64,000 bases of DNA from positions 754,433-818,432 of the forward strand of contig OY970378.1 of assembly GCA_963718875.1 (NCBI GenBank), read 5' to 3'. This stretch comes from Candidatus Parcubacteria bacterium. GTDB taxonomy: Bacteria > Patescibacteriota > Saccharimonadia > UBA4664 > JBIOIQ01. The notes under the pieces are model-generated. The model searched no databases, was not told the DNA's origin, and worked only from the letters and a program-made list of their open reading frames with translations. Positions 3,878 to 39,694 of this stretch are shown one piece after another. The position numbers and the translations under genes were made by a program. The stretch's first letter is position 1. The number at the start of each line of letters is the position of its first letter.

Positions 3878-3963
3878 GGGCGAGTGGTGAAATGGTATAC
3901 ACGCTAGCATGAGGGGCTAGTGACCGCAAGGTCGTGGAGGTTCAAGTCCTCTCTCGCCCACCA
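3878..3963 (+). tRNA. tRNA-Leu (anticodon GAG), long variable arm
   Basis: Manual fold: acceptor GGGCGAG/CTCGCCC, anticodon stem CTAGC/GCTAG with loop ATGAGGG, long variable arm, T-arm GGAGG-TTCAAGT-CCTCT, CCA encoded. Confidence 0.7.
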
Positions 3964-4048
3964 AAGCAATCTTCGCTTTTTTATCAAACACTTTATTAAA
4001 AATGCTCCCGCACCGGCTAACCGGTACGGGAGAAAATGGTGCAAGAAT

Positions 4049-4816
4049 CTACATGCCGACCGCGTGAAAACCGCCATCGGCGTGGATGATCTCACCAGTT
4101 GTGGCGGGGAGCCAGTCTGACAACAGAGCCACACAGGTTCTAGCGACCGACTTGGGGTCTTTGGCGTCCCAGCCTAGAGGAGCTCGAGCATCCCAGGGTT
4201 CGGCGATAGCGTCGAAGCCGGCAATGGATCTGGCGGCTACTGTCTTGAGCGGTCCTGCCGAAACCAGGTTGACCCTGACGCTGTACTGACCCAAGTCACG
4301 AGCGAGGTAGCGGGCAGTAGATTCCAGCGCTGCCTTTGCCACACCCATCCAGTTGTAGGACGGCCATGCTTGGCTGGCGTCAAAGTCAAGCCCAACAATG
4401 GAGCCGCCACCTTTCATCAACAGCAAAAGAGTTTCGGCTAGCGCTTTGAGAGAGAAAGCTGACGTCTGGACGGCCACGGACACGTCAGGCCATGGCGCAG
4501 CTAGAAAATCGCCTCCGATACAGGATGCCGGGCCATAGGCGATGGCGTGGAGCACTCCGTCTAAGTGGTCCCAGCGATTACCAAGGTCAGTAGCCAATGA
4601 GGCTAAGTGTTCCAAATCATTAACATCCACCTCCAGCACATCGGGGACGGGAAACAATCTACTGGCTGTTCGTCTGGTCACGCTCATGGCTCGACCGAAG
4701 CTGGTCAAGACTATTTCGGCGCCTTCACCCTGAGCCACCTTGGCCACTTCGTACGCAATCGAGTCGGAGTTAAGGACTCCCGTTATCAACAACCGCTTGC
4801 CATCCAGCAGCCCCAT
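4049..4816 (-). CDS. fabI: enoyl-ACP reductase, NADH-dependent (FabI/InhA type); high-GC island gene
   Basis: SDR-fold enoyl reductase signature (GKRLLITGV...SIAY, Y..K catalytic region, DGGFHA C-terminal motif as in InhA). Visibly GC-rich codons. Confidence 0.8.
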   Translation of the reverse strand: MGLLDGKRLLITGVLNSDSIAYEVAKVAQGEGAEIVLTSFGRAMSVTRRTASRLFPVPDVLEVDVNDLEHLASLATDLGNRWDHLDGVLHAIAYGPASCIGGDFLAAPWPDVSVAVQTSAFSLKALAETLLLLMKGGGSIVGLDFDASQAWPSYNWMGVAKAALESTARYLARDLGQYSVRVNLVSAGPLKTVAARSIAGFDAIAEPWDARAPLGWDAKDPKSVARTCVALLSDWLPATTGEIIHADGGFHAVGM

Positions 4817-4965
4817 TGGGGTCTCCTTTGATCGTTCTTAGGGACGGGTCAAGTAATAACACACTTTGATTGAAAATTACAGCATAAGTGGAGCGGTGTT
4901 AGAATTAAAACGCGTGAGCGCCTCCCGTACTGGCAAGATGCTCAGCGCGGAAGGCGCGTCGGGGA

Positions 4966-5637
4966 TTAGGGGTCGGTAGAGTTGGGTACTGCCTGAGCTA
5001 ACTCAGACCAGTGCTCATGCAAAAGCTGTCCTTCTACCCAGGCGAGAGCTAGCATGATGACCTGCCACTGGCGATCTTCCCCCTCACCCCCTGTGTGGCT
5101 CCACGTTTTGCCATCAATAAACACGCACTCGATGGCGTGTACGTAATTTTCAACCGGCTCGAAGATAAGCACCAAACTTCCTGGTTGTTGCCTGCCATCA
5201 TCATCGAACCTCTCCACTATGGCTCGAACATAAACGGTACCATCTGTGCCCTTAAATGGCTTTGCTTCGGTAACTTTTGCCCAGCTATCAAACCACAATT
5301 GTTCGATCTGGATCCTGAGAGCTCGCTCTTCGCCTTGAAGCTGGAACAATCGGTCTTTTTCCTGGCGTCGCAACCTTTCCTTCTTAGTACTTTCAGATCG
5401 GGCGAAGTTTTTGAGGGCTGTATCGACCACAAAAAGCATGAGGACCGAAGTCGCAATGAATATCCATCCAATGACTTTTTTGTGGCGCACAACGAAGCCA
5501 ATTTCCGGGAGCACAACGAAGCCAATTGCAAGACAAACAAAAGCGTCGAATGTCTTTTTGAATGCCCCGTACCGATCCTGCCATTTAGTGGAGCTGTATT
5601 TGTACACGAATTCCTCCCATCGAATGGCCGTCTGCAA
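4966..5637 (-). CDS. hypothetical membrane protein
   Basis: 223-aa track ORF with two TM segments and a charged coiled-coil stretch. Overlapping ORFs 5095..5661(+) and 5217..5861(-) judged spurious. Confidence 0.45.
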   Translation of the reverse strand: MQTAIRWEEFVYKYSSTKWQDRYGAFKKTFDAFVCLAIGFVVLPEIGFVVRHKKVIGWIFIATSVLMLFVVDTALKNFARSESTKKERLRRQEKDRLFQLQGEERALRIQIEQLWFDSWAKVTEAKPFKGTDGTVYVRAIVERFDDDGRQQPGSLVLIFEPVENYVHAIECVFIDGKTWSHTGGEGEDRQWQVIMLALAWVEGQLLHEHWSELAQAVPNSTDP

Positions 5638-6151
5638 GATTGCGCGGCGAGGATGAGCTGATTATAGTCAGCTAGCTTAACTTGTGCAATTAAAGCGATC
5701 AGCTGTGTTTTCATAGCAGCCAACGCAGAGCGGCAAAGAACCTTCTCAGCTTTGGCCGGTACAACTAGATAATGAGACTGAGATTTTCGGGAAAGACTAT
5801 GTTTTGACTTTTTTTTGGGGGGTAAATGTATAGCGTCTATCGGAGCGATTTTCGACTTCACCGATCACGGCGGGCTGAAGGACATGATCATTTTCTGGCA
5901 TTCCCCACAACTCGGACAACTCTTATTAACGGGTTAGCGGGGTATTAGTCATTTATAACCTATGTTTTGGTTATATCCATTTTGTAATTAGACAGTACAT
6001 ATAAACATTGTGGTAGCTAAGCGCAAAAAGTTGTGAGTTTAGCTAGCGCCTGGCCAGACCAAGATGTTTATTCTTATATAATACAGGTCTAAATTTTATT
6101 TTATGTTCTAACTATATTCAGCTTATAAGCTTAGATAACCACCAGAGGAGT

Positions 6152-9092: not shown

Positions 9093-9169
<77 letters not shown>

Positions 9170-9310
9170 GATTGATTGAAAAATAAGTTCAAAACCGGTA
9201 TGATGCTTCAGTTAGTAACCACCTCAAGTCTCGTATTCTGAGGTAATACTACATCGAGCGCGAACTGGAGGTAATGATGTCGAAGTGCGAGAACTATGAA
9301 GCGTGGTTGC

Positions 9311-9386
9311 GGCGCCTTAGCTCAGTTGGTAGAGCAGTGGCCTGAAGAGCCTCGTGTCGTTGGTTCGAATCCAACAGGCGCCACCA
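9311..9386 (+). tRNA. tRNA-Phe (anticodon GAA)
   Basis: Acceptor GGCGCCT/AGGCGCC, anticodon loop CTGAAGA, T-arm GTTGG-TTCGAAT-CCAAC, CCA encoded. Confidence 0.75.
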
Positions 9387-9510
9387 TTCGACTCCCCCGC
9401 ATCAGATGCGGGGTCGCTCATTGGTAAACCATTTTTTTTGGATCAGGGATTTATAGATAGTATTTAGGGTACTTCCTAGCTACTAACTGCTAGTCCCTAA
9501 TCCATAGTAT

Positions 9511-9586
9511 GCGGGTGTAGCTCAGCTGTTAGAGCGCTTCCTTGCCAAGGAAGAGGCCCAGGGTTAGAGTCCCTGTACCCGCACCA
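9511..9586 (+). tRNA. tRNA-Gly (anticodon GCC)
   Basis: Acceptor GCGGGTG/TACCCGC, anticodon stem CTTCC/GGAAG with loop TTGCCAA, T-arm CAGGG-TTAGAGT-CCCTG, CCA encoded. Confidence 0.75.
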
Positions 9587-11883: not shown

Positions 11884-12321
11884 GTGATGAAAAAGGAAAG
11901 CATAATGGGAGGCGTAATCGGGCTACTTGTAGGTGTGATAATTACTGGATTTGCCGCAGGTCAAGCAGTGAATAACGACAATACGAGGATGATGCAGATG
12001 ATGGGTATGGACACGAAAAGAAGCCAGCAGCAAACTGCTACGAGCCACGACACTATGTCGATGGCCGATATGAACAAGGTGCTGGCGGGTAAAACTGACG
12101 ATGACTTTGATAAAGCATTCCTTGAAATGATGATTACACATCATCAGGGTGCAATTGATATGGCTAATCTCGCTCCTACACGTGCCAAACACGAAGAAAT
12201 AAAGACATTGAGCCAAGAAATTATAAAAGCTCAGAATAAAGAAATAACAGATATGCAACAGTGGCAGATGGACTGGGGTTATATGACGAGTGATAACTCA
12301 ATGCCAGGTATGAACCACTAA
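11884..12321 (+). CDS. DUF305 family protein (copper-resistance-associated, secreted or membrane-anchored)
   Basis: Met-rich N-terminal region and a DUF305 helix with HHQGAI motif. Confidence 0.7.
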   Translation: MMKKESIMGGVIGLLVGVIITGFAAGQAVNNDNTRMMQMMGMDTKRSQQQTATSHDTMSMADMNKVLAGKTDDDFDKAFLEMMITHHQGAIDMANLAPTRAKHEEIKTLSQEIIKAQNKEITDMQQWQMDWGYMTSDNSMPGMNH

Positions 12322-12323
12322 AA

Positions 12324-14336
12324 ATGGACCATTCGCACCACGAACATAAAGACACCGAACATCAAGAACACGATAAACACGCTGGTCATTCAGTAGCAAT
12401 GTTCAAAGATAAGTTCTGGTTGTCGTTGCTGCTTACTATACCTGTGCTTGTATATTCTGAGATGATACAGCACTGGTTCAACTTTACACCGCCTAGTTTC
12501 CTTGGCTATCAGTACGTACCATTTGTATTTAGTTCTATCATTTTCTTTTACGGCGGTTTAGTGTTTATAAAGAGTGCGTTAGGAGAACTAAGAGCCAAGC
12601 TACCAGGAATGATGACGCTCATCAGCTTGGCAATTATAACTGCATATGTTTACAGTGTCGCAACACAGTTTTTTATTAAGGGCGATGGTTTCTTCTGGGA
12701 ACTAGCTACCCTAGTAACCATTATGCTACTAGGTCATTGGCTTGAAATGGCATCGGTAGCTAAAGCAGAGAATGCACTTGACGCTATCTCAAAGCTGTTA
12801 CCTGATAAAGCCGAAAGGCTCGTAAAAGGCAAGGCAATACAGGTGTTAGTTAGTGAGCTGAAAGTTGGCGACCTAGTGCTGATACGACCTGGCGCAAGTA
12901 TACCCGTTGATGGCGTGATTGTAGAGGGCAGTTCATCTGTTGATGAAGCTGCTATCACTGGCGAGAGTAAGCCCGTAAGTAAAACCGTCAACGATGAAGT
13001 TGTTGCTGGTACAGGTAACCAAGACGGCTCGTTGACCGCAAAAGTTACAAAGCTAGGTCAAGATACGGCACTAGCTGGCATTATGCGTCTGGTCGCAGAA
13101 GCTCAAAAATCCAAATCTAACGTTCAGGTGCTTGCGGATAAAGCAGCGTTTGCACTTACTATCATCGCAATAGCAACAAGTATTATCACTTTTATCTATT
13201 GGCTCATTGCCAAAGACGCATCGTTCGCATTAGAGCGGTCAGTTACTGTTCTAATTATCGCTTGCCCACACGCACTAGGCTTGGCTATACCGCTGGTTGT
13301 TTCAATATCAACCGCCCTATCTGCTCGTAATGGTTTGTTAGTTCGCAATCGACTTGCTCTTGAAGCGGCTCGTAAGTTGGACTGGGTACTGTTTGATAAG
13401 ACAGGCACACTCACCAAAGGCGAACACGGCGTTACAGATGTGTGGGCTACAAAAGGCTATTCCGAGGAATACATACTACAGCTCACTGCCAGCCTTGAGC
13501 AAAATAGCGAGCATATTGTAGGTAAAGGCATTGTGCGAAAAGCCGAGAAGCAGCACGTCCATCTTGATAAAGTCGCTAACTTCAAAGCGTTGCCTGGCTT
13601 GGGCGTACAAGGCACTTTACACGGCAACGAGGTGTATATAGCAGCCAGCTATCGCTATATTGAAGAAAACAAGCTGACAGTTCCAACCGAAATAGCAAAG
13701 ATGGTCAAGCAAGCTGCCAAAGAAGGTAAGACAGAGGTGTATCTGATTATCAATAAAAAGGTTGTCGGTGCATTGGGCTTAGCTGACATAGTTCGTGAAC
13801 AATCCAAGCAGACAATCGTAACCCTCAAATCAATGGACATAAAGACAGCAATGATAACAGGTGACTCGGATGAGGTTGCAACTTACGTTTCAGAACAGCT
13901 TGGCTTGGACCAGTATTTTGCTGAGGTTAGACCAGAAGACAAAGCAGCAAAAGTCAAAGAATTGCAGAAAAACGGACAGCAGGTTGCGATGGTTGGCGAC
14001 GGCATCAATGATGCACCTGCGCTTACACAAGCCGATATTGGCATAGCTATTGGTGCTGGCACAGATGTAGCAATCAAGTCGGCTGATATTGTCTTGGTAA
14101 AAAGTGACCCTCAAGACGTGGTAAAGGTAATCAATCTTTCAAAAGCTACCTATAAGAAAATGGCTCAGAACCTAGTTTGGGCTACTGGCTATAACGTGTT
14201 TGCAATACCGCTTGCAGCTGGCGTTCTTTACGGGGCTAACATTGTTCTTGCTCCTGCACTCGGAGCTGTGCTTATGTCAGTCTCAACTGTTGTAGTGGCG
14301 TTCAACGCTCAGTTGCTCAGACGAGTAAAGCTGTAA
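12324..14336 (+). CDS. heavy-metal (copper) translocating P1B-type ATPase with His-rich N-terminus
   Basis: CPH transmembrane motif ([11 protein letters not shown]), DKTGTLT phosphorylation motif, GDGINDAP hinge, N-terminal [23 protein letters not shown]. Confidence 0.85.
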
Positions 14337-15293: not shown

Positions 15294-15364
15294 TTTGAAA
15301 AATTGATTTTTATGACATTAAATGGTACTATAGTATTCTACCGATACGGAAGGAGGTGGTCCAG

Positions 15365-15718
15365 ATGGCCACCGATGTACAAGAAGAACTCAAGACGTTC
15401 GAGTTCAACTCTCACAACGTCAAGCAGGGCGACCGTTTCCACCTCGACCACGACGGCGGGCAAATAGTTATCGTCATCACTGACACGGAGTACAACGGAC
15501 GCAGCCACAACAGTCGCGACATCATTGGCATCGCCGCCGACCGCCAGGGCGAGTGGTGCGGACCCTGGGGTCGCATCATCTTCTACCACCCGATCGAGCT
15601 CGGAAAGGAGACAGACGCCACGTTCAACCAGCGTGGCGTCCACATTAAGCGACTCGAGGTGGTCCCTACCCAACTGGTCCGCGTACGCGACGGGAAACAC
15701 GAGCAGCTGCTCGGCTAG
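15365..15718 (+). CDS. hypothetical protein encoded in a high-GC island, driven by an AT-rich promoter
   Basis: GGAGGAGG RBS 7 nt before ATG; upstream TTGATT-N17-TATAGT; ORF visibly GC-rich; downstream 13-bp-stem terminator (GAGGCCCGCAGAA...TTCTGCGGGCCTC + TTTCTTG). Confidence 0.5.
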   Translation: MATDVQEELKTFEFNSHNVKQGDRFHLDHDGGQIVIVITDTEYNGRSHNSRDIIGIAADRQGEWCGPWGRIIFYHPIELGKETDATFNQRGVHIKRLEVVPTQLVRVRDGKHEQLLG

Positions 15719-15916
15719 TCGACAACGACAGACCGTTAGCGAGGCCCGCAGAAAGAGACCGCAGGAGTAGCCTCCTGTTTAGGCTCCTTCTGCGGGCCTC
15801 TTTCTTGTAATGTAAGTCCCACTTCCTTCGGCGTCCTTTCTGATTGCCTGTCACCTGCAAGGGATACTTAGGTGTTAAAATTAGTTAAGATAAACTTAAG
15901 GAAAAGGAGTATGAGG

Positions 15917-16817: not shown

Positions 16818-17162
16818 ATGACATACGTTATAACCATGCTTAAAAAAATATCATCGGATTTACTTCGTGGCCACACAGACAGCATCATCCTTAAACTTTT
16901 GTTGGATGGCGATAAGTATGGTTACGAAATTACAAAACTCGTTCACGAGCATTCGAATAAACTTTATGAGCTAAAAGAAGCAACTATGTATTCGAGTTTG
17001 AAGCGGCTAGAGAATGACGCCCGCATCACGTCTTACTGGGGAAACGAAACGCAAGGCGGTAGGCGCAAGTATTATCGTGTCACTGAAAGGGGCCTGGAAT
17101 TGTACAAAGACAACAAGCAAAACTGGGATTACGCGAAGCAGATCTTAAATGAATTATTATAA
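16818..17162 (+). CDS. PadR family transcriptional regulator
   Basis: PadR winged-helix signature (LLRGHTDSIILKLLLDGDKYGYEITKLV...YSSLKRLE). Confidence 0.75.
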   Translation: MTYVITMLKKISSDLLRGHTDSIILKLLLDGDKYGYEITKLVHEHSNKLYELKEATMYSSLKRLENDARITSYWGNETQGGRRKYYRVTERGLELYKDNKQNWDYAKQILNELL

Positions 17163-17174
17163 GAAGGGGAAATA

Positions 17175-17954
17175 ATGGAAAAAAAATTACAGACATTCAT
17201 CAGCGAGGCTTTTGCTCCATATGGAGAGTTTCCGGCGCGAGCTGACGTTTCACAAGAGTTGCTCGCTAATTTGCAGGAAAAATTTAATGATCTAAAAAAG
17301 CAAGGCAAGACTGATGAAGCGGCATACCAGGCCACCATTGATTCGTTTGGCGATATTGCCGAAATCATGGAGCATATCCCGCACAACGAGCCAGCCAGCG
17401 AGGCAAAGGCGAATACCAAGTTGAGGGGCTCAGCTCTCAAGCAGGCTGATCTTGCTGGAGCAAACCTCTCTGCAACCGATCTGAGCGCAAGTGATATGTC
17501 GGGAGCTAACTTTGATGGGGCGAACTTAGCCAAAACCCAGCTTAGAGCTTCGGCGCTACAAGGTTCGAGCTTTATTGATGCAACCCTAACAGGAGCTATT
17601 TTTAACAGTAGCGATCTGCGTAATGTGTGCTTCGACAGAGCTGACCTTACTGGAGCTGTTCTCAAAGCCTCGGGCTTAAGGGGTGCAACATTTGAGGGCG
17701 CAACTTTAGTGCGAACAGATTTTAGCCGCTCAGACTTAACCGAAGTTTCTTTTGACGGTCAGGTTCTTGAAGAGGTACTGTTTGATAGTGCTTCACTCAA
17801 GAAAACATCGTTTAAAGGTGCAACTCTTCGCAATGTATCATTCCATCACACAGCTGTTAAACATGCAATATTCGATGGGACAGCGATGGACAAAGTGACC
17901 TTTGCCATTTTGAAGGGAGCTAAAGCTGTGCTGGACAATGTTGTTGTTTCATAA
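17175..17954 (+). CDS. pentapeptide-repeat protein with N-terminal PadR-associated helical domain
   Basis: Long run of A(D/N)LxG-type pentapeptide repeats (ADLAGANLSATDLSASDMSGANFDGANLAKTQL...). Confidence 0.7.
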   Translation: MEKKLQTFISEAFAPYGEFPARADVSQELLANLQEKFNDLKKQGKTDEAAYQATIDSFGDIAEIMEHIPHNEPASEAKANTKLRGSALKQADLAGANLSATDLSASDMSGANFDGANLAKTQLRASALQGSSFIDATLTGAIFNSSDLRNVCFDRADLTGAVLKASGLRGATFEGATLVRTDFSRSDLTEVSFDGQVLEEVLFDSASLKKTSFKGATLRNVSFHHTAVKHAIFDGTAMDKVTFAILKGAKAVLDNVVVS

Positions 17955-18180
17955 GGTACTCTCACATATTTTTTTGAAGAATAGGTTTTCTTTGTAAGGT
18001 GTTATAAATATTGACCTCCAACGAGCTAAGCTGCCTGCTGATGAGGTGAAGTGGGATTTGAGGGACTTTGTTACCATCGGATTTTCCTGATAGCCAGTGT
18101 TGCAAAGAACTTGATGCCCCCTCCTCTAGACCCGGCGGTCTGAAAGAGGGGGCATCTTAGGTTGTAAGCTACTGTTAGAG

Positions 18181-19119
18181 CTACCCCTGGTCAAGGCCTC
18201 CGTCAAAGCGGCTTCTATCGACTGACGGATCGTTGGCGGATACCACCGCTTGAACGCCCGTATCCGGTGTGCCGCCGGGAGGCGGTGGAGCATCGAGGGC
18301 GAACTCTGCCGGCGTCGGTATAGGAGGCCTTGGGTGTCGACCGATGCCTTCAATTGCCTTTTCGACCGTCCTATTGGCAGCCTCCGTGAACCTTGCAAGC
18401 TGACGCTCAAGCGCACCGTACCGCGCCTCACTCAGATCGAGTTGCTCACGCAGATCGGCGTTGATTCGCTCCTGCGCCGACAGGTCTTCCAGTGCTTGGC
18501 CATGAGTCTGCACCAGCTCCCGGACCCTTGCCAAGAGAATTTGCAACTGACCTTCTCGAGCCGCCAGGTCAGACGCGATCGACTCGACCATCTCTAGGAG
18601 ATCGGCGACGGTGGGCTGGGGGTTGGGTACATCTACGTCTTCCCGTCCCTGTTCTACGATCGCTGGCGAGTGGGCACGAACTTCCTGGAGGACTGCTCTC
18701 CTGATGTCCGCAAGCTCTACCCCTAGCTTGACCAGAACTTGGCATCCTACTGCATCTTCGTCTCTGAGTAGGCCGAGCAGGATGTGCGCTGGGGTTATGA
18801 CCTCACTCTCGCTCGGCCCTTGAGGCGGCACTAGAAGAGCTTCACGTACCGACAGCTCGAGAACCTTTTTGGCTCGAGGAGTAAAAGGAATGCGGCCGCT
18901 AGGCGATGATTCTCCCAGACCAATGTCCTCCTCTACTTGCTTTCGGACGCATCCGAGAGTAACCCCGAGTCCGTCGAGGACACTGGCCGCGTCTCCTCCT
19001 TCTCGGATCAAGCCGAGCAGGATGTGCTCGGAACCGATGTAGCTGTGGTGGAGCTGGCGCGCCTCCTCCTGAGCCAAGACGACGACACGTCGGGCACGTT
19101 CGGTGAATCGTTCGTACAT
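18181..19119 (-). CDS. Clp N-terminal (Clp_N repeat) domain protein with coiled-coil and Pro-rich C-terminus; high-GC island gene
   Basis: Two Clp_N repeats (FTERARRVVVLAQEEARQLHHSYIGSEHILLGLIRE... and ...ITPAHILLGLLRDED), no AAA+ domain; strongly GC-rich codons. Confidence 0.65.
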   Translation of the reverse strand: MYERFTERARRVVVLAQEEARQLHHSYIGSEHILLGLIREGGDAASVLDGLGVTLGCVRKQVEEDIGLGESSPSGRIPFTPRAKKVLELSVREALLVPPQGPSESEVITPAHILLGLLRDEDAVGCQVLVKLGVELADIRRAVLQEVRAHSPAIVEQGREDVDVPNPQPTVADLLEMVESIASDLAAREGQLQILLARVRELVQTHGQALEDLSAQERINADLREQLDLSEARYGALERQLARFTEAANRTVEKAIEGIGRHPRPPIPTPAEFALDAPPPPGGTPDTGVQAVVSANDPSVDRSRFDGGLDQG

Positions 19120-19498
19120 TTTCGGTCCCCCTTAGGGATCGGTGCTACTCGGTTGGGATGGTACTCGCAAAAGCTGTATGAGGCTGGTTTGACCTCACAA
19201 AAAACGCCAATATATTTTACTGCTTTTGGGCGTTTGTGTCAAAAATAATTGTTTGTGAATCTTGAAACCCCTTAAACTTTTTGTCATCCTCCGACTTGAT
19301 CGGAGGATCTCGGCTAGATTCCCTACCCGGAGCGCCAAGCCAGGTAATAGTTGGGCTTGGCTTTCCGATAGGGAATGACACAAAATGGTGTGTTGATAAT
19401 TGCATTTGCCCTGTCTGCCGAGCCACTTTGAGAGTGACCCGGCAGACAGCATTGGACGATGGACTTCACTACTTGGTTTGCTTGGACTGATGAGGGGG

Positions 19499-23180: not shown

Positions 23181-23202
23181 CAAGAGTTCCCCTATTGACA
23201 GT

Positions 23203-23238
23203 TCGGTTTATGTTCGGTTATAATTTGTCCTAAGGACC
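23203..23238 (+). promoter_or_regulatory. sigma70-like promoter (TTGACA-N17-TATAAT)
   Basis: TTGACAGTTCGGTTTATGTTCGGTTATAATTTG upstream of the 23289 ORF. Confidence 0.5.
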
Positions 23239-23288
23239 AGATTTTAAATTTAAACTGGCCAAATTAATAAAATTATCAGGACCTAATC

Positions 23289-23549: not shown

Positions 23550-23564
23550 CAAGCTTACTTACAT

Positions 23565-23733: not shown

Positions 23734-23802
23734 TGCTCGGGAGTTTGAAAAATATCTCAAGTCTGGAGTAGGTAGGCAATACTTAAGAAGCTTTGAGACT
23801 TA

Positions 23803-23888
23803 GGGCGAGTGGTGAAATGGTATACACGCTAGATTCAGGTTCTAGTGAGCGCAAGCTCGTGGAGGTTCGACTCCTCTCTCGCCCACCA
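23803..23888 (+). tRNA. tRNA-Leu (anticodon CAG), long variable arm
   Basis: Same acceptor/D-arm as the tRNA at 3878; anticodon stem CTAGA/TCTAG with loop TTCAGGT; T-arm GGAGG-TTCGACT-CCTCT; CCA encoded. Confidence 0.7.
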
Positions 23889-24942: not shown

Positions 24943-24962
24943 TTTAAGGGATTTTGAAGCAA

Positions 24963-24990
24963 TTGTCAGCTGACTGTTTTAGGATGACAA
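24963..24990. repeat. degenerate third copy of the 40-bp palindromic element
   Basis: TTGTCAGCTGACTGTTTTAGGATGACAA vs consensus CGTCAGTTGACGGTTCAGGATGACAA. It keeps the GTCAG..CTGAC palindrome and the GGATGACAA terminus. Confidence 0.3.
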
Positions 24991-25873: not shown

Positions 25874-25907
25874 CGGATCCGGAGTGGCTAAAGCCTTTTG
25901 GTCCTGG
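25874..25907. repeat. 34-bp junction motif shared (inverted, 30/34 identical) with 39596-39629
   Basis: CGGATCCGGAGTGGCTAAAGCCTTTTGGTCCTGG vs the reverse complement of the 39.6 kb copy CGGATCCGGAGCGGCTAAAGCCTTCCGGTCCGGG. Confidence 0.5.
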
Positions 25908-25970
25908 ACGACAAAGTGATGAAGGGCGGTCGCTTGCGAGCGACCGCCCTTCCGGAGCAGATCCGACAGG

Positions 25971-26312
25971 TCAGCCCACCGGAACAAAGACACAGCTGAA
26001 ACCATTCAGGAGCGCGCTGCTGACGATCACCGTCCCGTTCTGGATCCTGACAGCCGGGTCGTCAAACATTTCGGTACCTTCAGAGGTTTCGACGCTGAGG
26101 CGGACGCAGTTTGGCGTCCTGATGACAGTCACTTCTACAACCGTCGCGAACGAGATTCTTGATCCGGCGGCAGCACCCGCAACAGTGGCGACGATCGTAA
26201 CCTCTTCTTGAAGGAGAGCCGACTTGATCGCCCTGATGACTTCTTTGTGCTCTCGGTCCGAGCCTTGTAGCCGTAATTCCTCCAAGTAGGGCTCAGTGGC
26301 TTGGGTGGGCAT
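25971..26312 (-). CDS. hypothetical protein, high-GC island gene
   Basis: 113-aa GC-rich ORF. It is followed on its 3' side by a perfect 13-bp-stem hairpin (GAAGGGCGGTCGC-TTGC-GAGCGACCGCCCTTC, 25921-25953). Confidence 0.45.
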   Translation of the reverse strand: MPTQATEPYLEELRLQGSDREHKEVIRAIKSALLQEEVTIVATVAGAAAGSRISFATVVEVTVIRTPNCVRLSVETSEGTEMFDDPAVRIQNGTVIVSSALLNGFSCVFVPVG

Positions 26313-26652
26313 TGGGTTCTCCTTCGAAGGTAGGGCGGTTATCGCCGGTCGTGACAGTCAATCTCCGCATTAGGCTTTGGTTAGCCTGCAGTTGTTATAT
26401 TCTGGCATTTGCGCTTTAAAAAGTCAAAAATCGAATCAAAGTCTTTTATTGTGTGATTTGTGACGACTGATATTATTTATAGGATTTATTGGCTTGCCTA
26501 CCTTACCCCGCTTTTTTGTATAAGGCGAAAGTCGACTTAAATTAAGCGTTTTGAATAGGTCGACTATCGCCTTATAGTACATAAATGAACAAGTATGACT
26601 ATCTTAAATTAAAAGAGTTTTTCTTCAATAAATCTAACTAGTTATGAGCCGG

Positions 26653-28636: not shown

Positions 28637-29011
28637 TTAAGAATGCTCTGGTTTGCGCTCAATTATATCATTTAATAAGTAGTTTACTATCCAAATTATA
28701 ATTACTGCCAATATGGCTGAACCAAAGGAACGTACTTCAAAGCGGTGGTAAAAGAACGTTACAAGATAGAGCATGAGCGTGTTAATAACGAGCGTAAATA
28801 CTCCTAGCGTCAAAACAATGGCTGGCAAGGTTAGGATGACCACCAAAGGACGAATAAGAGCGTTTACAATCGAGAAAATTAAAGCTGCCCAAACCAGAAC
28901 GCGGTAATGATCTTGATAACTTATGCCAGTAAGCAGGGTGGCGGCGGTCCATAAGCCAAAAAAATTTACTAACCACCGGAGCAGAAACGATTTTATCATA
29001 GCGCCCCTCAT
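28637..29011 (-). CDS. 4-TM small membrane protein (phage-holin-4-like family)
   Basis: 124 aa, four hydrophobic helices, short charged C-terminus. Confidence 0.4.
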   Translation of the reverse strand: MRGAMIKSFLLRWLVNFFGLWTAATLLTGISYQDHYRVLVWAALIFSIVNALIRPLVVILTLPAIVLTLGVFTLVINTLMLYLVTFFYHRFEVRSFGSAILAVIIIWIVNYLLNDIIERKPEHS

Positions 29012-29418
29012 TGTAGCACGCTAAGGCGGGAGATTGAAGTCAGACTTTAGTATTGGTGGGGTGTTGTGCTAGATTTGAAGTCTGACTTCCTGATAACCTC
29101 GAGGGTTGACAGTTGATGGATCCCCTATCCGGAGCATCCAATTTGTCAAAACTGGTGACTACAATGGCCTTCCGATATGGGATAACGGGATTTTTCTGCG
29201 ATGGATTGGATCGACTCAGTGTTAAACGTCAGCAGCTAAAAGTTAAGCGTTTCTCGTGTGTCAAATGTCAGACATTAGCGGTCAAAAGTTGCTTTAGCGT
29301 TTGTGTATCAGACGGCTGAGACTAAAAACGCTCTTTCCACTCACCCGCATCCGCTTCTTGCGTTTACGGTCGCGCGTTTCAGCACGTCTTAACGCGCGTA
29401 AAACTTGTTGACGACTGC

Positions 29419-31172: not shown

Positions 31173-31685
31173 TCAGGTCATGCCTCCCCAAGGAGATGCG
31201 AGAAGCCATGATGGAACGAAATGATCCGGGAGTGGTTCATCTTGCTCCTGATACGGCAGGAAGCCGATGCGATGGCAGTACCACTCCAACACCGCCACAA
31301 GCAGGCCGAGAGATACCAAGATCTGTGCGACAAGCAGCCACGCTACGTACGGTCGACCGTGGCCTGTTGTATCGATGAAGACTTGACCTGATCGGCCCAG
31401 CCACACTCGAGTCGTCTTCTGGTCGCCAAACTCAGTGGAAAGGTTGGCTGGGCGGGTTACCGGCAACCCATCACGCCCGATGTAGGTGACACCGAACAGG
31501 GTTGTCGAGGTGGTTTTTGACCCAACTTGGGAACTGATATTGGTACTCACAACGCCAACAATTGGACTTCCCCACTCTTGCTGGTTGCGCGCATCGAGGC
31601 GGGCAGCGAGCACCAGAAGCTGGATACTGGCAACCACCACTAGGACCATGACCACAACCTTACTCGGTACTAACTTCTTCGACAT
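31173..31685 (-). CDS. membrane protein (DUF3592-like: TM - beta-rich domain - TM), high-GC island gene
   Basis: 170-aa GC-rich ORF with N- and C-terminal hydrophobic helices. Confidence 0.45.
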   Translation of the reverse strand: MSKKLVPSKVVVMVLVVVASIQLLVLAARLDARNQQEWGSPIVGVVSTNISSQVGSKTTSTTLFGVTYIGRDGLPVTRPANLSTEFGDQKTTRVWLGRSGQVFIDTTGHGRPYVAWLLVAQILVSLGLLVAVLEWYCHRIGFLPYQEQDEPLPDHFVPSWLLASPWGGMT

Positions 31686-32514: not shown

Positions 32515-33560
32515 CTGCAATCCTGAGTTTCCTGAATTCACCCCTCAATCAGGACAGTCTCTCGTAAAACTCCTTTCTCTTTAGCCATTTCAATAGCGGA
32601 CATATATCCCAGGATCTTCCTGGGTTTGTTGTTTATGATCGTAATGATACGCTGCAATTCTTTGTTCGTCACGGTGGCTAGATCCATGCCTTTGGGCAAG
32701 TAGTGCCGAATCATTCGGTTGGCGTTTTCCACCCCTCCTTTTTGCCAGCTAGAATAGGGGTCACAGAAAAAAACGAGCATATCGAGCAATCTGTGCCAAC
32801 GGTTCTCGATACCGTTGTCGAGAGTCAGACTGCTGATGAGAGCAAGACCAGTTTGGAAGAGCTGATGGCTCCATTAAAGCTCACCGGACACAAGTCTGGG
32901 ATGGGTCTAGCAGCAATCAGTCTGGTGACTCGTTCCTGAATCACTACGATTGCTGCTTTTGATCCAGTCCGCTTGCCGCTAACGATGGTATCCCCCTCAT
33001 AGTGGCCCACTTCGCTCCGGACGGTAGCTTCATGGGGGCGCTCTGTAATACTCACCCGATCTGGAATCATCACCCGATCGGTCTTTGGTTTGCGCTTCTT
33101 TGGTCTGTACCTACGGGAGGGCAGGTAGTCACAGTACTTCTGCCCTCTGGCGCTGTCGAGCCATTCGTAGATGGCTGTCTTAGAGGCATAGTAACCGTGC
33201 TGATCTTTTTTTAGTCGTCCCGCTATCTCATCGGGATTCCAGCCATCCATGAGGCGCACAATGATGTACCAGCGCAAATCATCATTCTCCTGGATCTTCT
33301 TGCCCTGGTACTTGGCATACTTGCGTTTGACGTAGGCTTTTTGTTTGGCGATGCGGGCATTGTAGCCTTCCGGGGTCTTATTACGCTTCACCTCATCACT
33401 GATGGTATTGGGGCTCCGGCCCAAAGCCCGACCAATGGCCCTAAGAGTGTGACCTTTATTTAAAAGAATTTCTATTTCCGAACGCTCTGCCGATGTTAGT
33501 TTAGTAGCTTTTACCATGATGACACTCTACGGGTTGACTGTCCTGATTCAAAACGGAATG
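32515..33560 (-). mobile_element. IS30-family insertion sequence (transposase frameshifted)
   Basis: Terminal inverted repeats: CTCAATCAGGACAGTCTC at the left end vs the reverse complement of the right end TGAATCAGGACAGTCAAC. Element about 1.05 kb, within the IS30 size range. Confidence 0.65.
32538..33517 (-). pseudogene. IS30-family DDE transposase split into two ORFs (32825..33517 N-terminal HTH/DDE part; 32538..32789 C-terminal part)
   Basis: N-terminal ORF MVKATKLTSAERSEIEILLNKGHTLRAIGRALGRSPNTISDEVKRN (IS30 HTH). C-terminal ORF ...YSSWQKGGVENANRMIRHYLPKG (IS30 DDE C-terminal signature). The two ORFs are out of frame. Confidence 0.7.
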
Positions 33561-33635
33561 GAGGTATATAGCTCAGCGCCCCTCGACATTTTGCTACTTT
33601 CATCTATCCGTCCTGCCAACCCAAGGAGCATTTCC

Positions 33636-34184
33636 GTGACTGTGACCCAGACCCGCCCTGCCCCCCTCACCGAGGACGAGGAGCGGCTCATTGCAAAGCT
33701 CATCACCAACCCGCGAGTGCCCAGCCGAGACGTGGCTCGCCTCCAATTGGACGACCTCGAGGTTGTCCGCCGTACCCTGTTCTTCGTCACCCGCGACCTG
33801 GCTACCCAGCCCCCCACGCTGCATCCCGTCATCGTGGTACAGCCGAAGCAGGTGCAGACGCTCCCCGCCAACCTGGAAGAGCTTGAGAGGCTGGTCCACG
33901 ACCTCTACTCGAAGCTGGAAGAGTTGAAGGCCATCGTGCCGCAGATTCTCGCCGGCCGGATCGACACCTGCCTCTCGAACGCCGTTGAGGCCTACGGAGA
34001 CACGCAGCGTTTGTTGAGGTGGATCGACAGGGCCAAGGACCTGATCAAGCTGATCGAGTCCAACCCGATGTTCCGATCGACCACGCCTCCGGCTGTCGAT
34101 CTCGACGCACTCAAGGCTCGCGACGCCAAGCTGAGTACCACCCCCAAGAAGCCCCGTTTCAAGAAGGGCAAGAAGCAGAAGTAG
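33636..34184 (+). CDS. hypothetical protein, high-GC island gene abutting the IS30
   Basis: AAGGAG RBS + GTG start at 33636; GC-rich; C-terminal Lys-rich tail. Many spurious antisense ORFs overlap it. Confidence 0.4.
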   Translation: MTVTQTRPAPLTEDEERLIAKLITNPRVPSRDVARLQLDDLEVVRRTLFFVTRDLATQPPTLHPVIVVQPKQVQTLPANLEELERLVHDLYSKLEELKAIVPQILAGRIDTCLSNAVEAYGDTQRLLRWIDRAKDLIKLIESNPMFRSTTPPAVDLDALKARDAKLSTTPKKPRFKKGKKQK

Positions 34185-34188
34185 CAAC

Positions 34189-34713
34189 ATGTTCGAGCGT
34201 CCCGGCCGGTGCCCCACGTGGGTGCCGGTCGGGCCTCCGACCCAACGTCTGAAGTCACTTGAGGCTTTAGGTCGAGGTTCAATTGACAGCTGCAAATATC
34301 AGCGATATGGTTTGAGACGTCCACCGCACATCCCACAAGGAGGTAGTACATACGATAACCAGCTGCTAATAAGTCCGGAGGATGTAATCGGCTGGAGCAA
34401 CGAGTTTGAATATCGCTCGCTTCAGCTGTTCGTCTCCGTCCAAGGTGTCACGCATTTCATTGGTAGTGTCGGCCCATGCGCCCAGCGTTGCGGCATTTGC
34501 CGAGACACCCACTACTACGCCAAGAATTGCAACGGGTTGCCAGTTAAACCCGATAACGGCTACGGCTTCAATTCGGGAAGAAGTGCCGTCGTGGCTCTGC
34601 TCGAACAAAGCCGGTTCTACGCCCACAAAGGCAGATGGCTAAACCAAAGCCAATGGGATCGGCTGCAGCGCAAGCTACCTCACCAGCAGCCTAAGCGTTG
34701 GTACTCGCTGTAA
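34189..34713 (+). CDS. hypothetical Cys-containing protein (coding status uncertain)
   Basis: 174-aa track ORF of mixed composition; no convincing start/RBS identified. Confidence 0.25.
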   Translation: MFERPGRCPTWVPVGPPTQRLKSLEALGRGSIDSCKYQRYGLRRPPHIPQGGSTYDNQLLISPEDVIGWSNEFEYRSLQLFVSVQGVTHFIGSVGPCAQRCGICRDTHYYAKNCNGLPVKPDNGYGFNSGRSAVVALLEQSRFYAHKGRWLNQSQWDRLQRKLPHQQPKRWYSL

Positions 34714-35003
34714 TCGGGTCGAGTCGGGGTTTAAACTCCCCGGCTCGGCTCATTCTTTTATGTGCGCACAAAAGGTTTTTTAGTTTGCGTTTTGACTGAT
34801 TTTTTGGGGCTTTCCTACTCTATGCAGGTTCTTGTGTTTTTTTAGTAAACTTGGAATTGTAATAGATTGCATTACAATCCATTACAATCTTGATGATGCA
34901 AAAAAGTTATAGGAGCGTAGAGGTATTGAAAGCGATTTCGCGTCAAATTTAGATGATGTTTCCTGCTCCGATCGAGAATGACAGTTTAAAGACGGTTGGG
35001 CCA

Positions 35004-37874: not shown

Positions 37875-37965
37875 TTTCCTCCTATTTCTCACCAACGTAA
37901 CAGAAAAAAATTATACGCTGTTTTGAGACGCGTGGCAATGCGCTAGAAGGCTTAAAGACACTACA

Positions 37966-38005
37966 GGAAGTCCGACTTCCCTACCCGAGAGGAAGTCGGA
38001 CTTCC
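37966..38005. promoter_or_regulatory. two copies of the 15-bp palindrome GGAAGTCCGACTTCC, 10 bp apart, about 90-130 bp upstream of uvrA
   Basis: Read directly: GGAAGTCCGACTTCC-CTACCCGAGA-GGAAGTCCGACTTCC. Confidence 0.35.
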
Positions 38006-38112
38006 TGGGGGTATAAAACGAAATGCCCCTCCCAGGCATCTCGAGGTGAGTGCCTGAAGACTAAGGCCCGGTTCGACAACGATGTCGAACCGGGCCTTTT
38101 TATCCCCATGCT

Positions 38113-38625
38113 TCAGCCGAGCAGCTTGTGGATCACCCGGGCCGCTTCTTGACGCTTGACCACTAGAACGATCGCGAAGACTGCAACGACAAGGACGAGG
38201 ATAAAGATGGTCACTCTAGCTGGAGTATGCGAGATCAACCCCCAGGCGATAGTGCTGTAAATGATGGGCCACCAGACGGCACGCATCAGCTCAAAAGATC
38301 CAGAGAGGGCGTCGGCGACCCAGACACCTAGAATCAGCACCACGCCGAACCAAATCCAGAGGTCACCGGCGACCATCATGCCGATGAGCGGGCTGACAAG
38401 GAGTACGCGGTCAGACTGACCGTCAAGGTGGTAGCCAAACTCAGTTGCAACTCCCCACCTTTTGGCCAGGAAGCCATCGAGAAGATCACTTCCGAATCCG
38501 CCCACAACGAGCCAGATGGCGGCGGAGGTCCAGTGGTTTTCGATAATGAGAGTGTAGACATAAACCGCCATCAACAGCCGAAGCGCGCTAATGACATTGA
38601 CCGTGATGAGCTTGAAAGTTCTCAT
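38113..38625 (-). CDS. CDP-alcohol phosphatidyltransferase family protein; high-GC island gene
   Basis: D-G-x2-A-R...G-x3-D-x3-D motif (DGFLAKRWGVATEFGYHLDGQSDRV) in a multi-TM protein; GC-rich. Confidence 0.7.
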   Translation of the reverse strand: MRTFKLITVNVISALRLLMAVYVYTLIIENHWTSAAIWLVVGGFGSDLLDGFLAKRWGVATEFGYHLDGQSDRVLLVSPLIGMMVAGDLWIWFGVVLILGVWVADALSGSFELMRAVWWPIIYSTIAWGLISHTPARVTIFILVLVVAVFAIVLVVKRQEAARVIHKLLG

Positions 38626-38777
38626 GTCTTTTCTCCTGCTCGAGCTTTGGGATGTGCGAAGGGTGTTTATAATAACATACTTTCACGTAAAATACAATGT
38701 TTTACTGTCTGAAGAGGCAAAGAGCCCGGGTCGACGTCATTGTCGACTTGCGGGCTCTGTTGTTTTTCGCCTGTTCC

Positions 38778-39500
38778 CTACTTGGATCGGACCTTGCTCT
38801 TACCAGTCCGGTAGTTGTACTCGATATGGTCTCCAGTCTTGGTCATGGGGGCGATGGTGTCGAGGACTACCATCGAGACGAAGCCGGCGAAGCCGATGGC
38901 GAAGGTCAACGTGACCAACGTACTTCGTTGCGTGACCAGAAGCGGCACAAGTGCCGAGAGCATCCAGTAGGCCACAATGGCGAAGATGAAGGTGTGCCAG
39001 AGCTTGGAGGGGCTGAGCTCCTGCGCCATGGTGTAGTAGCCGCACTTGACCGGGGACAGCTCCATGAGCAGCGATAGGCCGAAGCCGAACGCTAGGAGGG
39101 TAAGGTGCCACCAGCGCTGGGTGTACCACCCGTTGGAGGGTGTCCAGGCCCGCAGAGCGTACCCCATCCCAATGAGGATCATTGGGATGAAGAGGGTGTC
39201 GTTGAAGCGGAAGGTCCAGTAGCGCGGAATCGTGGGGTCTCCCTCGACGAGGCGCCTGATCACGAGGATGGCCACGAAGTCGGCCAAGATCATGATGGCC
39301 GCGGCGGCGAATGGTCCCCACGGACGGGCGACCCAGCGGTAGATGTCGAGTGCTGGCAGAATGCCGGCGGAACGTGACTTGCCAGTGGCGGGCTTGGAGG
39401 CGGCGAGGAGCATCAGCTCCAGCGCTACAAACACGAAGAGCAGATAGATAGCAGTCCGACGGGGCATGACTCCTCCAGAGGGAGTAGTAGGGATATTCAA
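38778..39500 (-). CDS. polytopic membrane protein, hypothetical; high-GC island gene
   Basis: 240-aa hydrophobic ORF. The alternative frame 38800..39564 is Arg-rich and typical of an off-frame in GC-rich DNA. Confidence 0.5.
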   Translation of the reverse strand: MNIPTTPSGGVMPRRTAIYLLFVFVALELMLLAASKPATGKSRSAGILPALDIYRWVARPWGPFAAAAIMILADFVAILVIRRLVEGDPTIPRYWTFRFNDTLFIPMILIGMGYALRAWTPSNGWYTQRWWHLTLLAFGFGLSLLMELSPVKCGYYTMAQELSPSKLWHTFIFAIVAYWMLSALVPLLVTQRSTLVTLTFAIGFAGFVSMVVLDTIAPMTKTGDHIEYNYRTGKSKVRSK

Positions 39501-39586
39501 CTGTCAACAAAGTGCGAGAAACTATATTATAATAGCATACTTTCACGATAAATGCAAGGTCCAACGCTTGAACTCAATAACCTAAC

Positions 39587-39686
39587 TTGTCATCCCGGAC
39601 CGGAAGGCTTTAGCCGCTCCGGATCCGGGATCCACCAACTGTCGTGGATCCTGAAACGACCGTCAGTTGACGGTTCAGTATGACAA
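39587..39686. repeat. composite repeat element B: TTGTCATCC - 34-bp motif (inverted copy of 25874-25907) - 40-bp palindromic element - GTATGACAA
   Basis: Starts with CTTGTCATCC and ends with TATGACAA (inverted termini). Contains GATCCTGAAACGACCGTCAGTTGACGGTTCAGTATGACAA, 39/40 identical to copy A at 20611. Confidence 0.55.
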
Positions 39687-39694
39687 TTGACAAA

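Follow-up and report, generated by a model that had tools for sequence, protein, structure and literature searches.

The 64,000-nt stretch analysed here (hereafter the window; positions 754,433 to 818,432 of contig OY970378.1, assembly GCA_963718875.1, Candidatus Parcubacteria bacterium) carries a series of GC-rich islands, among whose genes are those for three lipid enzymes: an enoyl-acyl carrier protein (ACP) reductase (fabI), an acyl-ACP:phosphate acyltransferase (plsX) and a CDP-alcohol phosphatidyltransferase. The GC content of the whole window is 46.7%. A 400-nt profile, a 300-nt scan and a two-state hidden Markov model (HMM) agreed on discrete GC-rich segments, of which the HMM called seven (4004-5105, 15424-15798, 18116-19168, 19408-20524, 25924-26368, 33608-34749 and 37972-39482); these sum to 6.7 kb and have a mean GC content of 59.1% compared to 45.3% outside. 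An additional patch at 31173-31685 is weaker (55.8% GC) and falls below the HMM call, yet it is an outlier in the per-gene analysis. The island set comprises 10 open reading frames (ORFs) in seven or eight segments spanning 4.0-39.5 kb, and island ORFs make up 10 of the 36 ORFs in the first 40 kb but 0 of the 27 between 40 and 64 kb (Fisher p = 0.003).

Backbone ORFs (n = 53) have a GC fraction of 0.454 (sd 0.029) and a GC fraction at third codon positions (GC3) of 0.439 (sd 0.045, maximum 0.56), whereas the island ORFs (n = 10) have values of 0.55-0.63 (z 3.4-6.2) and 0.60-0.81 (z 3.6-8.3), respectively. The relative synonymous codon usage (RSCU) of the island ORFs correlates with that of the backbone at r = -0.37 to 0.05, while backbone control genes reach 0.43-0.84; the corresponding values are 0.38-0.84 against Acidimicrobiales genes and 0.39-0.76 against genes of the Candidatus Saccharimonadia metagenome-assembled genome (MAG) JTS-RE368. 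A first-pass annotation, made from the nucleotide sequence, had described high-GC islands of actinobacterial lipid genes in an AT-rich backbone. The GC step changes are real and lie essentially where that annotation had placed them, as seen in windowed GC, in the HMM and in per-gene GC and GC3, and codon usage is not uniform, uniformity being the outcome that it had itself named as speaking against islands. By contrast, it had overestimated the composition of the islands: instead of 60-68% GC, segment means are 57-63%, with 0.65 reached by peak 300-nt windows only, and third positions are not GC-saturated, the island GC3 being well short of the 0.91-0.96 found in true donor-type genes. Its gene calls for FabI, Clp_N, PlsX and the CDP-alcohol phosphatidyltransferase agree with Pfam and NCBIfam.

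UvrA of the window is 80% identical to that of JTS-RE368 (locus L001) and 61-68% identical to that of other Saccharibacteria, and the gene order uvrA-uvrC-holin-SBP-FAD oxidase is kept in JTS-RE368. Similarly, UvrB and UvrA encoded on a second contig, from the Logan assemblies (L086), are 72% and 81% identical to their window counterparts. Judged by these genes, the backbone is a chromosome of the Saccharimonadia, a lineage of the candidate phyla radiation (CPR), and the earlier guess of a Saccharibacteria-like backbone is borne out by the UvrA identity and the kept uvrA-uvrC-holin-SBP order. Vertical orthologues of the window and JTS-RE368 are 45-80% identical. The nearest Saccharimonadia relatives (L001, L084, L085 and L086) have 54-56% GC, with 53.7% for L086 itself, and their genes have a GC3 of 0.47-0.86; thus, the window lineage is an A+T-rich member of its group. 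With a backbone at 45% GC, the composition has shifted by a large amount although UvrA is still 80-83% identical.

The clearest case among the islands is plsX (19499-20494, minus strand; 63.4% GC, GC3 0.69). The protein passes the TIGR00182 equivalog model (323.7 bits, cut-off 243.4) and matches Pfam FA_synthesis over residues 6-318 (317 bits). At 90% identity it clusters with proteins of which the named ones come from MAGs of "Acidimicrobiales bacterium" and "Actinomycetota bacterium". Identity is 89-93% between the window protein and the 14 further cluster members listed, and 89-100% among these. At columns that are invariant in these 14 members, the window PlsX has five private substitutions, as many as one ordinary member. 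Donor-type plsX DNA was read for three loci (L081, L167 and L168), all on contigs of 70-73% GC and with a GC3 of 0.92-0.96; two of the three have the canonical YceD-(L32)-PlsX-ACP-RNase III context, while L167 (1,067 bp) is too short to display it. Compared to these three genes, the window plsX has a DNA identity of 79-81%, a dS of 1.05-1.30 and a dN/dS of 0.046-0.059. Synonymous differences are strongly directional, with 71-87 from G/C to A/T and 6-16 in the reverse direction, whereas the donor genes differ from each other symmetrically and with a dS of ~0.5. Synonymous G/C-to-G/C differences number 45-55 between window and donors and 55-56 between donors. Moreover, nucleotide homology to the donors covers 19506-20485, i.e. 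the coding sequence (CDS) alone.

The window plsX is nested in an Acidimicrobiia donor clade while its composition lies between donor and recipient. In total, these comparisons of sequence indicate that PlsX is a partly ameliorated import from an Acidimicrobiales clade that is under strong purifying selection. The actinobacterial origin that had been proposed for this gene is thus upheld and can be narrowed to the Acidimicrobiia.

Because the synonymous shift is directional and the protein is conserved, plsX cannot be stray Acidimicrobiales DNA, which bears directly on the concern that Acidimicrobiales reads were joined chimerically into a Saccharibacteria contig. Exact matches place the window proteins on a single contig of 1,189,924 bp. 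This contig is derived from a metagenome, and the islands are short and of foreign composition, as such an artefact would have it. However, plsX with its GC3 of 0.69 does not resemble real Acidimicrobiales genes, and fabI is shifted in the same manner; homology stops exactly at the CDS, and the AT-rich spacers carry repeats that are found elsewhere in the backbone; and relatives hold fabI and the transferase pair in a Saccharimonadia context (see below). Finally, independent Logan assemblies (run ERR12037361) reproduced three sets of island-backbone junctions, i.e. fabI with its neighbour; the end of plsX followed by Clp_N, the pentapeptide protein and PadR; and the 170-aa ORF-uvrC-holin-secG-SBP on a contig of 8,063 bp. 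We conclude that mis-assembly, which the first-pass annotation had raised as a caveat, is effectively excluded, and the chance that chimeric joining explains the islands is vanishingly small.

fabI (4049-4816, minus strand; 57.7% GC, GC3 0.625) encodes an enoyl-ACP reductase of the PRK07889 type. The protein scores 396.4 bits against NCBIfam PRK07889 (cut-off 299; residues 1-254 of 255) and 303.9 bits against the InhA model NF040631, which is under the cut-off of 430. The catalytic Tyr and Lys (Y-x6-K) are present, with PSYNWMGVAKAALES of the window aligned with PAYNWMTVAKSALES of InhA (YNWMxVAK motif), and both printed alignments have a gap of ~10 residues opposite the extended substrate-binding loop at InhA ~205-215. 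Thus, of the label "InhA-type FabI" given previously, the FabI part stands and the InhA part does not. The 120 best matches are 66-72% identical, and all named ones among them are from Acidimicrobiales, Acidimicrobiia or Actinomycetota, in agreement with the actinobacterial origin suggested before. Among the closest donor-type genes is one encoding a 71% identical protein (P0029) at a locus of 70% GC (L169; GC3 0.91), where fabI is the last gene of an operon FabH-FabG-ACP-FabF-AccD-FabI; relative to this gene, the window fabI has 77 synonymous changes from G/C to A/T and 10 in the opposite direction. With its closest relatives in the Acidimicrobiia (by a neighbour-joining (NJ) tree only) and its intermediate composition, fabI has the marks of a laterally transferred gene.

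JTS-RE368 also has a fabI copy (P0026, 69% identical), which is among the top matches, lies on a contig of 149.5 kb between the genes for ValRS and Sua5/TsaD and whose GC content of 58% matches that of its own genome. In the NJ tree, the window and JTS-RE368 proteins are sisters in 90 of 100 bootstraps, and their identity lies inside the range of vertical orthologues of the two genomes. FabI is not a private and recent gift of a host, because the nearest relative MAG carries a copy as well. A single capture of fabI before the window and JTS-RE368 lineages split appears likely from the tree but is not secure. The two genes have the same composition (GC 0.58 in both; GC3 0.62 in the window and 0.60 in JTS-RE368) and symmetric synonymous changes (47 vs 49). 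As the GC3 of the window fabI equals that of the JTS-RE368 copy and not that of the window backbone, this suggests a later arrival from a relative of higher GC or an independent capture. FabI lies on a long branch in the tree and may have changed its role.

The first island is bounded by a tRNA-Leu(GAG) gene (3878-3963, plus strand; ARAGORN and Rfam), the 3' end of which is separated from the stop codon of fabI by 85 nt; a terminator made up of a GC-rich hairpin and a T-run lies at ~4004-4040. Adjoining fabI is a 223-aa ORFan (4966-5637, minus strand; GC3 0.54) with a GC-rich 3' end inside the HMM segment 4004-5105. This ORFan may have arrived together with fabI; no homologue was found beside fabI in the L084 locus.

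The island at the far end of the set contains a gene pair. The first gene encodes a small CDP-alcohol phosphatidyltransferase of a rare subfamily (38113-38625, minus strand; 55.4% GC, GC3 0.68) and the second a multi-pass membrane protein (38778-39500, minus strand; 60.4% GC, GC3 0.81), the likely start codon of which is the ATG at 39467. The transferase matches PF01066 with 54 bits (gathering threshold 22), and its motif DG-x2-AK-x8-G-x3-D-x3-D is intact (read as DGFLAKRWGVATEFGYHLDGQSD), with D47, D50, G51, A54, G64, D68 and D72 invariant in the family alignment. However, it is below all NCBIfam equivalog cut-offs (ClsA, 42.9 vs 240; PgsA, 37.8 vs 109.1; PIP synthase, 21 vs 170). A HMMER search of 1.84 billion cluster representatives returned 16 sequences at E < 1e-10, the best of which are 61% and 50% identical, and a scan of JGI metagenomes with the family alignment returned distant relatives only (at most 35% identity). 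The 50% identical relative is encoded at L086 in the order uvrB ... 202-aa membrane protein-transferase-second transferase-glycoside hydrolase-uvrA, and the 61% identical relative is likewise preceded by a small gene. The membrane partner of the window is 33-37% identical to the 202-aa protein, which has the same position, and the motifs WYTQRW.HLT and QELSPSKL.HT are conserved between them. The top relatives are on short contigs; the sole one with a readable context is syntenic and Saccharimonadia-like, and we found no close relative in the actinobacteria. From this synteny, the transferase pair is best described as a Saccharimonadia-resident, uvrA-adjacent module, and the actinobacterial origin that had been assigned to this island is not supported.

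Several smaller features accompany the pair. At L086, positions 2986-5188 encode the second CDP-alcohol transferase, a paralogue with a GC3 of 0.86, and an MGH1-like glycoside hydrolase, both of which are lacking in the window. An AT-rich, promoter-like repeat of 34 nt lies upstream of each gene of the pair (38667-38700 and 39527-39560); the two copies have an identical core of 21 nt (TTATAATARCATACTTTCACG, in the second copy at 39527-39547), for which 0 matches are expected by chance, and the repeat has the look of a promoter or operator that was duplicated. The spacer that separates uvrA from the transferase gene contains two perfect hairpins, one with 17-nt arms (37964-38007) and one with 16-nt arms followed by a T-run (38063-38098), the latter of which looks like the terminator of the transferase gene. 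A single-sequence AlphaFold2 model of the membrane partner was unusable (pLDDT 54.6).

At L086, the GC3 of the transferase gene is below its background while that of its neighbours is above, and the gene for the membrane protein has a GC3 of ~0.8 in both the window and L086. A GC3 of ~0.8 in both genomes implies that, for this gene, the signal is not simply a fading donor signature. That observation, made on proteins that are only 33-37% identical, is what speaks for the view that no transfer took place, and that the islands are native genes whose GC content is kept high through codon-level or amino-acid-level selection or through biased gene conversion. This view leaves unexplained why PlsX is 91% identical to Acidimicrobiales proteins and why FabI is nested in the Acidimicrobiia; moreover, the ORFs at 25971-26312 and 31173-31685 lack a homologue in the L001 intervals. 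We consider it very improbable.

The divergence of the transferase pair (37-50% identity) beside a UvrA that is 81% identical, together with the discordant GC3 in both genomes, suggests allele exchange among Saccharimonadia of different GC. Extended to the whole set, this leads to the proposal that most or all islands were recently received second-hand, through recombination in a variable region, from Saccharimonadia of 54-56% GC, in which fabI and plsX had been captured and ameliorated earlier. The range of GC3 among genes of these relatives takes in all of the islands, the composition of the window fabI is that of the JTS-RE368 copy with symmetric synonymous change, the transferase pair is syntenic at L086, and island RSCU correlates with that of JTS-RE368 genes. 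However, no Saccharimonadia copy of plsX was found in the few kb of the relatives that were inspected, and the three nearest readable plsX genes are in Acidimicrobiales-type contigs of 70-73% GC; in the same fetched Saccharimonadia loci, fabI and the transferase pair are the only islands with homologues. As an account of most or all islands, we regard second-hand entry as a serious contender, albeit one with less than an even chance of being right.

The gene neighbouring plsX (18181-19119, minus strand; 59.9% GC) encodes a protein with two Clp_N repeats (Pfam, 1.3e-27) followed by a unique, coiled-coil-like and Pro-rich C-terminal half. Homologues align over residues 1-145 only, i.e. the N-terminal 46%, with 55-63% identity. 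Named matches are mostly from Actinomycetota but also from Ktedonobacteraceae (Chloroflexota), and one homologue sits in a contig of 70% GC. Phage matches include phrog_35667 (2.6e-47) and proteins of the Mycobacterium phages Myrna and Phabba (46-53% identity); a phage origin was considered and rejected, as the identity to the mycobacteriophage proteins is below that to cellular proteins. On the basis of these matches, the source of the gene is a high-GC terrabacterial gene pool from which no specific donor can be named, and the Clp_N-only protein does not serve as the actinobacterial marker for which it had been taken. A near-consensus sigma-70 promoter-like site is present upstream of the Clp_N gene (19242-19214), and this promoter and the AT-rich spacer of 240 nt between the Clp_N gene and plsX identify the two as separate units.

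The remaining five island ORFs are ORFans that had no family match in Pfam, NCBIfam, PHROGs, PADLOC or four viral-contig scans, the large protein database being outside this search. They encode proteins of 120 aa (15356-15718, plus strand; 59.5% GC, GC3 0.79), with a weak, sub-threshold resemblance to an OB-fold (BOF); 113 aa (25971-26312, minus strand; 56.7% GC, GC3 0.66); 170 aa (31173-31685, minus strand; 55.8% GC, GC3 0.61), a membrane protein that forms the weakest island; and 222 aa (33516-34184, plus strand; 59.9% GC, GC3 0.80), with a strong codon-position periodicity of GC. The fifth, a 174-aa ORF in the same island as the last (34189-34713, plus strand; GC3 0.60), has a weak coding signal and may be a decayed gene or non-coding. 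The 170-aa ORFan had been labelled DUF3592-like, a label that finds no Pfam match at E <= 0.01. Neither the 113-aa nor the 170-aa ORFan has a homologue in the corresponding L001 intervals, which for the latter is the uvrA-uvrC interval. The islands do not carry recognisable phage or defence cargo: PHROGs matched the Clp_N protein only, PADLOC returned nothing and the viral scans were empty. Abutting the island at 33.6-34.7 kb is a truncated IS30-family transposase gene (230 aa, 32825-33517, minus strand; Pfam HTH_38, 8.9e-17), which ends 49 residues past the GHYEGDTI motif and for which an rve/integrase-core domain was not detected. Its GC3 (0.56) exceeds that of all other ORFs counted as backbone.

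Intergenic spacers of the island-rich part carry a structured repeat of ~105 nt with the ends TTGTCATCC...GGATGACAA, which occurs twice in full and five times in part between 19 and 40 kb. One full copy (19281-19385; ends TTGTCATCC ... GGAATGACA) lies between the Clp_N and plsX islands and the other (39587-39688; ends TTGTCATCC ... GTATGACAA) borders the CDP-alcohol transferase island on its outer side. A half copy (20611-20650) is at the upstream edge of plsX, a partial copy in reverse orientation (25874-25914) is at the edge of the 113-aa island, and further partial copies are at 24950-24990, 29108-29135 and ~34950-34985. A stretch of 31 nt is identical between 20612-20642 and 39648-39678, with 0 such repeats expected by chance. 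Both full copies are predicted to fold into three hairpins and a closing terminal stem, with z-scores of -5.1 to -7.1 (19281 copy) and -5.6 to -6.9 (39587 copy). Five of the seven copies are in spacers that border islands, an association that was spotted post hoc and is only marginally significant by a rough count. The repeats have no Rfam family, the 19281 copy giving no more than two matches, both at chance level (E 0.29 and 0.84), and the repeat was in 0 of 166 fetched loci.

tRNA genes directly adjoin two islands, namely the tRNA-Leu(GAG) gene beside fabI and a tRNA-Cys(GCA) gene (20726-20799, plus strand; ARAGORN and Rfam) located 232 nt from the plsX start codon. The first 24 kb contain seven tRNA genes in all (Leu-GAG, Val, Phe, Gly, Cys, Leu-TAA and Leu-CAG, including those at 9093-9586 and 20726-23888). 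Two familiar modes of entry were considered and rejected. A classical integrase-mediated genomic island would fit with the two tRNA-adjacent positions, but the window contains no integrase, no tRNA-derived direct repeat and, as for transposases, the truncated IS30 gene only; att-like direct repeats and tRNA fragments were sought on either side of the islands, with short, chance-level matches as the sole result. Similarly, integron cassettes do not account for islands that are scattered over both strands between core genes, and neither an integron integrase nor attC-like sites in the repeat ends were found.

The cumulative GC skew has its maximum at ~40.4-40.8 kb, where genes converge; gene strands are all minus in 41-64 kb and mostly plus in 6-18 kb. 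Given this skew peak and the converging orientation, the island-rich stretch may be proximal to the terminus, and ~40400-40800 beside it may be the replication terminus itself. Between the islands are accessory genes at backbone GC, i.e. DUF305 and P-type ATPase genes (11884-14336), PadR and pentapeptide-repeat protein genes (16818-17954), an APH-family kinase gene (24046-24942) and a gene for a "mycobacterial 4-TMS holin" (28637-29011); these may be older, fully ameliorated acquisitions.

Previous work provides the background against which the lipid genes are of interest. In the CPR genomes examined by Probst et al., PlsY and PlsC were present while neither PlsX nor ACP-dependent enzymes were, and lysolipids were abundant in CPR-enriched fractions (PMC7242380); Saccharibacteria have been reported to lack fatty-acid synthesis (PMC11659515). 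In Firmicutes, PlsX works together with fatty-acid kinase in the use of exogenous fatty acids and links the acyl-phosphate made by the kinase to acyl-ACP (PMC10146087, PMC12594616). Genes gained by Saccharibacteria through horizontal gene transfer (HGT) include those for the arginine deiminase system, nrdD, ldh and CRISPR, with Firmicutes or mixed donors (PMC8764695, PMC7427843), and the authors saw no strong sign of genes from the Actinomyces host in TM7x (PMC7427843). None of the publications searched mentions Saccharibacteria together with PlsX.

The first-pass annotation had gone further and taken the three enzymes for consecutive steps of lipid handling that, if the backbone was that of a reduced-genome episymbiont, looked like grafts from a host. 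In its full form, this explanation holds that all islands came directly from an actinobacterial host and jointly installed a lipid-synthesis pathway in a genome lacking one. PlsX and FabI are indeed of Acidimicrobiia origin, named Clp_N matches are mostly from Actinomycetota with similar proteins in mycobacteriophages, island codon usage correlates with that of Acidimicrobiales genes, and cultivated Saccharibacteria have actinobacterial hosts (PMC8764695). However, the steps are not consecutive, as PlsY, PlsC and CdsA lie between the three enzymes; of the donor operons, ACP, FabH, FabG and FabF were left behind, and a lone FabI is unable to make fatty acids. Moreover, FabI is common to a relative MAG, the only readable relative of the transferase pair is in Saccharimonadia at the same locus with no close actinobacterial one found, and five ORFs are without detectable relatives. 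An actinobacterial origin of the islands thus holds for PlsX and FabI but is not supported for the transferase pair, while the Clp_N protein has no close donor and the five ORFans are unassignable. We consider it unlikely that a direct graft from a host explains the set.

The account that we favour, and that we consider probable when taken as a whole, is that of an accessory region with at least seven foreign gene-sized pieces from multiple sources, and of tuned lipid salvage. The window would be an accessory and probably terminus-proximal part of a Saccharimonadia chromosome of ~1.19 Mb. It would have received, from more than one source, at least seven foreign pieces of gene size and higher GC; these would now be resident, expressed-looking genes. 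The comparisons show that plsX was captured, as a CDS only, from a narrow clade of Acidimicrobiales, since when the protein has hardly changed and synonymous sites have moved toward the A+T-rich composition of the recipient; fabI, by contrast, is far more diverged. The islands appear not to have been acquired all at once. Direct transfer from Acidimicrobiia, plausible as hosts or neighbours, is the probable origin of some; for others, or for the same genes at second hand, the probable route is by way of Saccharimonadia of higher GC (54-56%) and recombination in a variable region.

With regard to function, the most likely role of PlsX is to interconvert acyl-phosphate and acyl-ACP, as it does in the Fak-PlsX route of Firmicutes, which would let fatty acids that have been scavenged feed both PlsY (as acyl-phosphate) and PlsC (as acyl-ACP). 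The tight constraint on PlsX fits with a role in handling scavenged acyl chains, a role that needs ACP. The transferase pair would make a head group of unassigned kind. The net effect would be that lipid salvage is tuned and not that de novo synthesis is installed.

Several observations weigh against this account. The inventory of lipid partners (ACP, AcpS, PlsY, PlsC, CdsA, FakAB and acyl-ACP synthetase) covers the 64-kb window, within which there is no gene for ACP, PlsY, PlsC or FakAB; without ACP, PlsX and FabI have no canonical substrate. No donor is assignable for the five ORFans and the Clp_N protein. As the codon-usage correlations with Acidimicrobiales and with JTS-RE368 are equally high, they do not distinguish direct from second-hand entry. 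The sisterhood of the two Saccharimonadia FabI proteins may be due to long-branch attraction, since their terminal branches are 0.19-0.21 compared to a median of 0.04, and at conserved columns only two rare residues are common to both, compared to 12-13 that are private to each; moreover, simple vertical descent of fabI from an ancestor shared with JTS-RE368 is hard to fit with a GC3 of 0.62 that is far from the 0.44 of the backbone. Finally, the window offers neither an integrase nor an att duplication nor an intact mobile element by which the insertions could be explained.

A bolder version can be imagined in which a soil or water Saccharimonadia lineage living on Acidimicrobiia, which cultured pairs have so far not included as hosts, rebuilds acyl-ACP-dependent phospholipid assembly from host genes that are acquired singly. 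PlsX would fill the PlsX/ACP gap of CPR genomes, diacyl-lipids and not lyso-lipids would be made from scavenged fatty acids, and the imports would have been inserted or mobilised via the ~105-nt repeats found at several island edges. In this combined form, we hold it to be doubtful.

CPR bacteria including Saccharibacteria are thought to take membrane lipids from their hosts, hence the interest in PlsX and FabI. An imported PlsX together with an intact FabI would point, in a testable manner, to Acidimicrobiia as the donor and as a possible host of this uncultured environmental clade, and would suggest that some epibionts process acyl chains instead of only importing finished lipids, although the case stops short of a complete lipid pathway. 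In addition, plsX is an unusually clean natural example of amelioration, because sampling extends to the donor clade and the drift at synonymous sites can be told apart from change in the protein.

Mycobacterial InhA is the best match of FabI among solved structures (254 bits) and shares with it the Tyr and Lys as well as the C-terminal ADGGFHA; however, FabI is under the InhA cut-off and above that of PRK07889 and is ~10 residues shorter at the substrate loop. The window transferase resembles PgsA, ClsA and PIP synthase in belonging to PF01066, in its complete Asp motif and in its size of ~170-180 aa, but it is far under their cut-offs, and its family, a very small one, has a conserved but uncharacterised membrane protein as partner. 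The repeats are similar to miniature inverted-repeat transposable elements and repetitive extragenic palindromic sequences in length, in their terminal inverted ends, in their multi-hairpin folds and in occurring as full and partial intergenic copies; on the other hand, a cognate transposase was not identified, the two full copies are unlike in their interiors and no Rfam family applies.

A functional parallel is the FakAB-PlsX-PlsY/PlsC route of Firmicutes (PMC10146087, PMC12594616): the window PlsX is an orthodox and constrained TIGR00182 protein, and a scavenger needs this interconversion, whereas FakAB, ACP, PlsY and PlsC are absent from the window. Amelioration of horizontally acquired genes is a concept of Lawrence and Ochman. 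Like ameliorating HGT genes, those described here have a foreign composition, an intermediate GC3, directional synonymous change and purifying selection; unlike them, they are single CDSs with AT-rich promoter spacers of the recipient type and not a multi-gene island with an integrase and att sites. As in the known acquisitions of Saccharibacteria, a reduced epibiont has gained single metabolic functions by HGT, but here the donor is from the Acidimicrobiia and the genes act on acyl-ACP. In total, HGT with amelioration and gene gain by HGT in Saccharibacteria are already known, and islands as a phenomenon are ordinary; what appears to be new is an Acidimicrobiia donor, acyl-ACP enzymes as the cargo and the clarity of the PlsX case.

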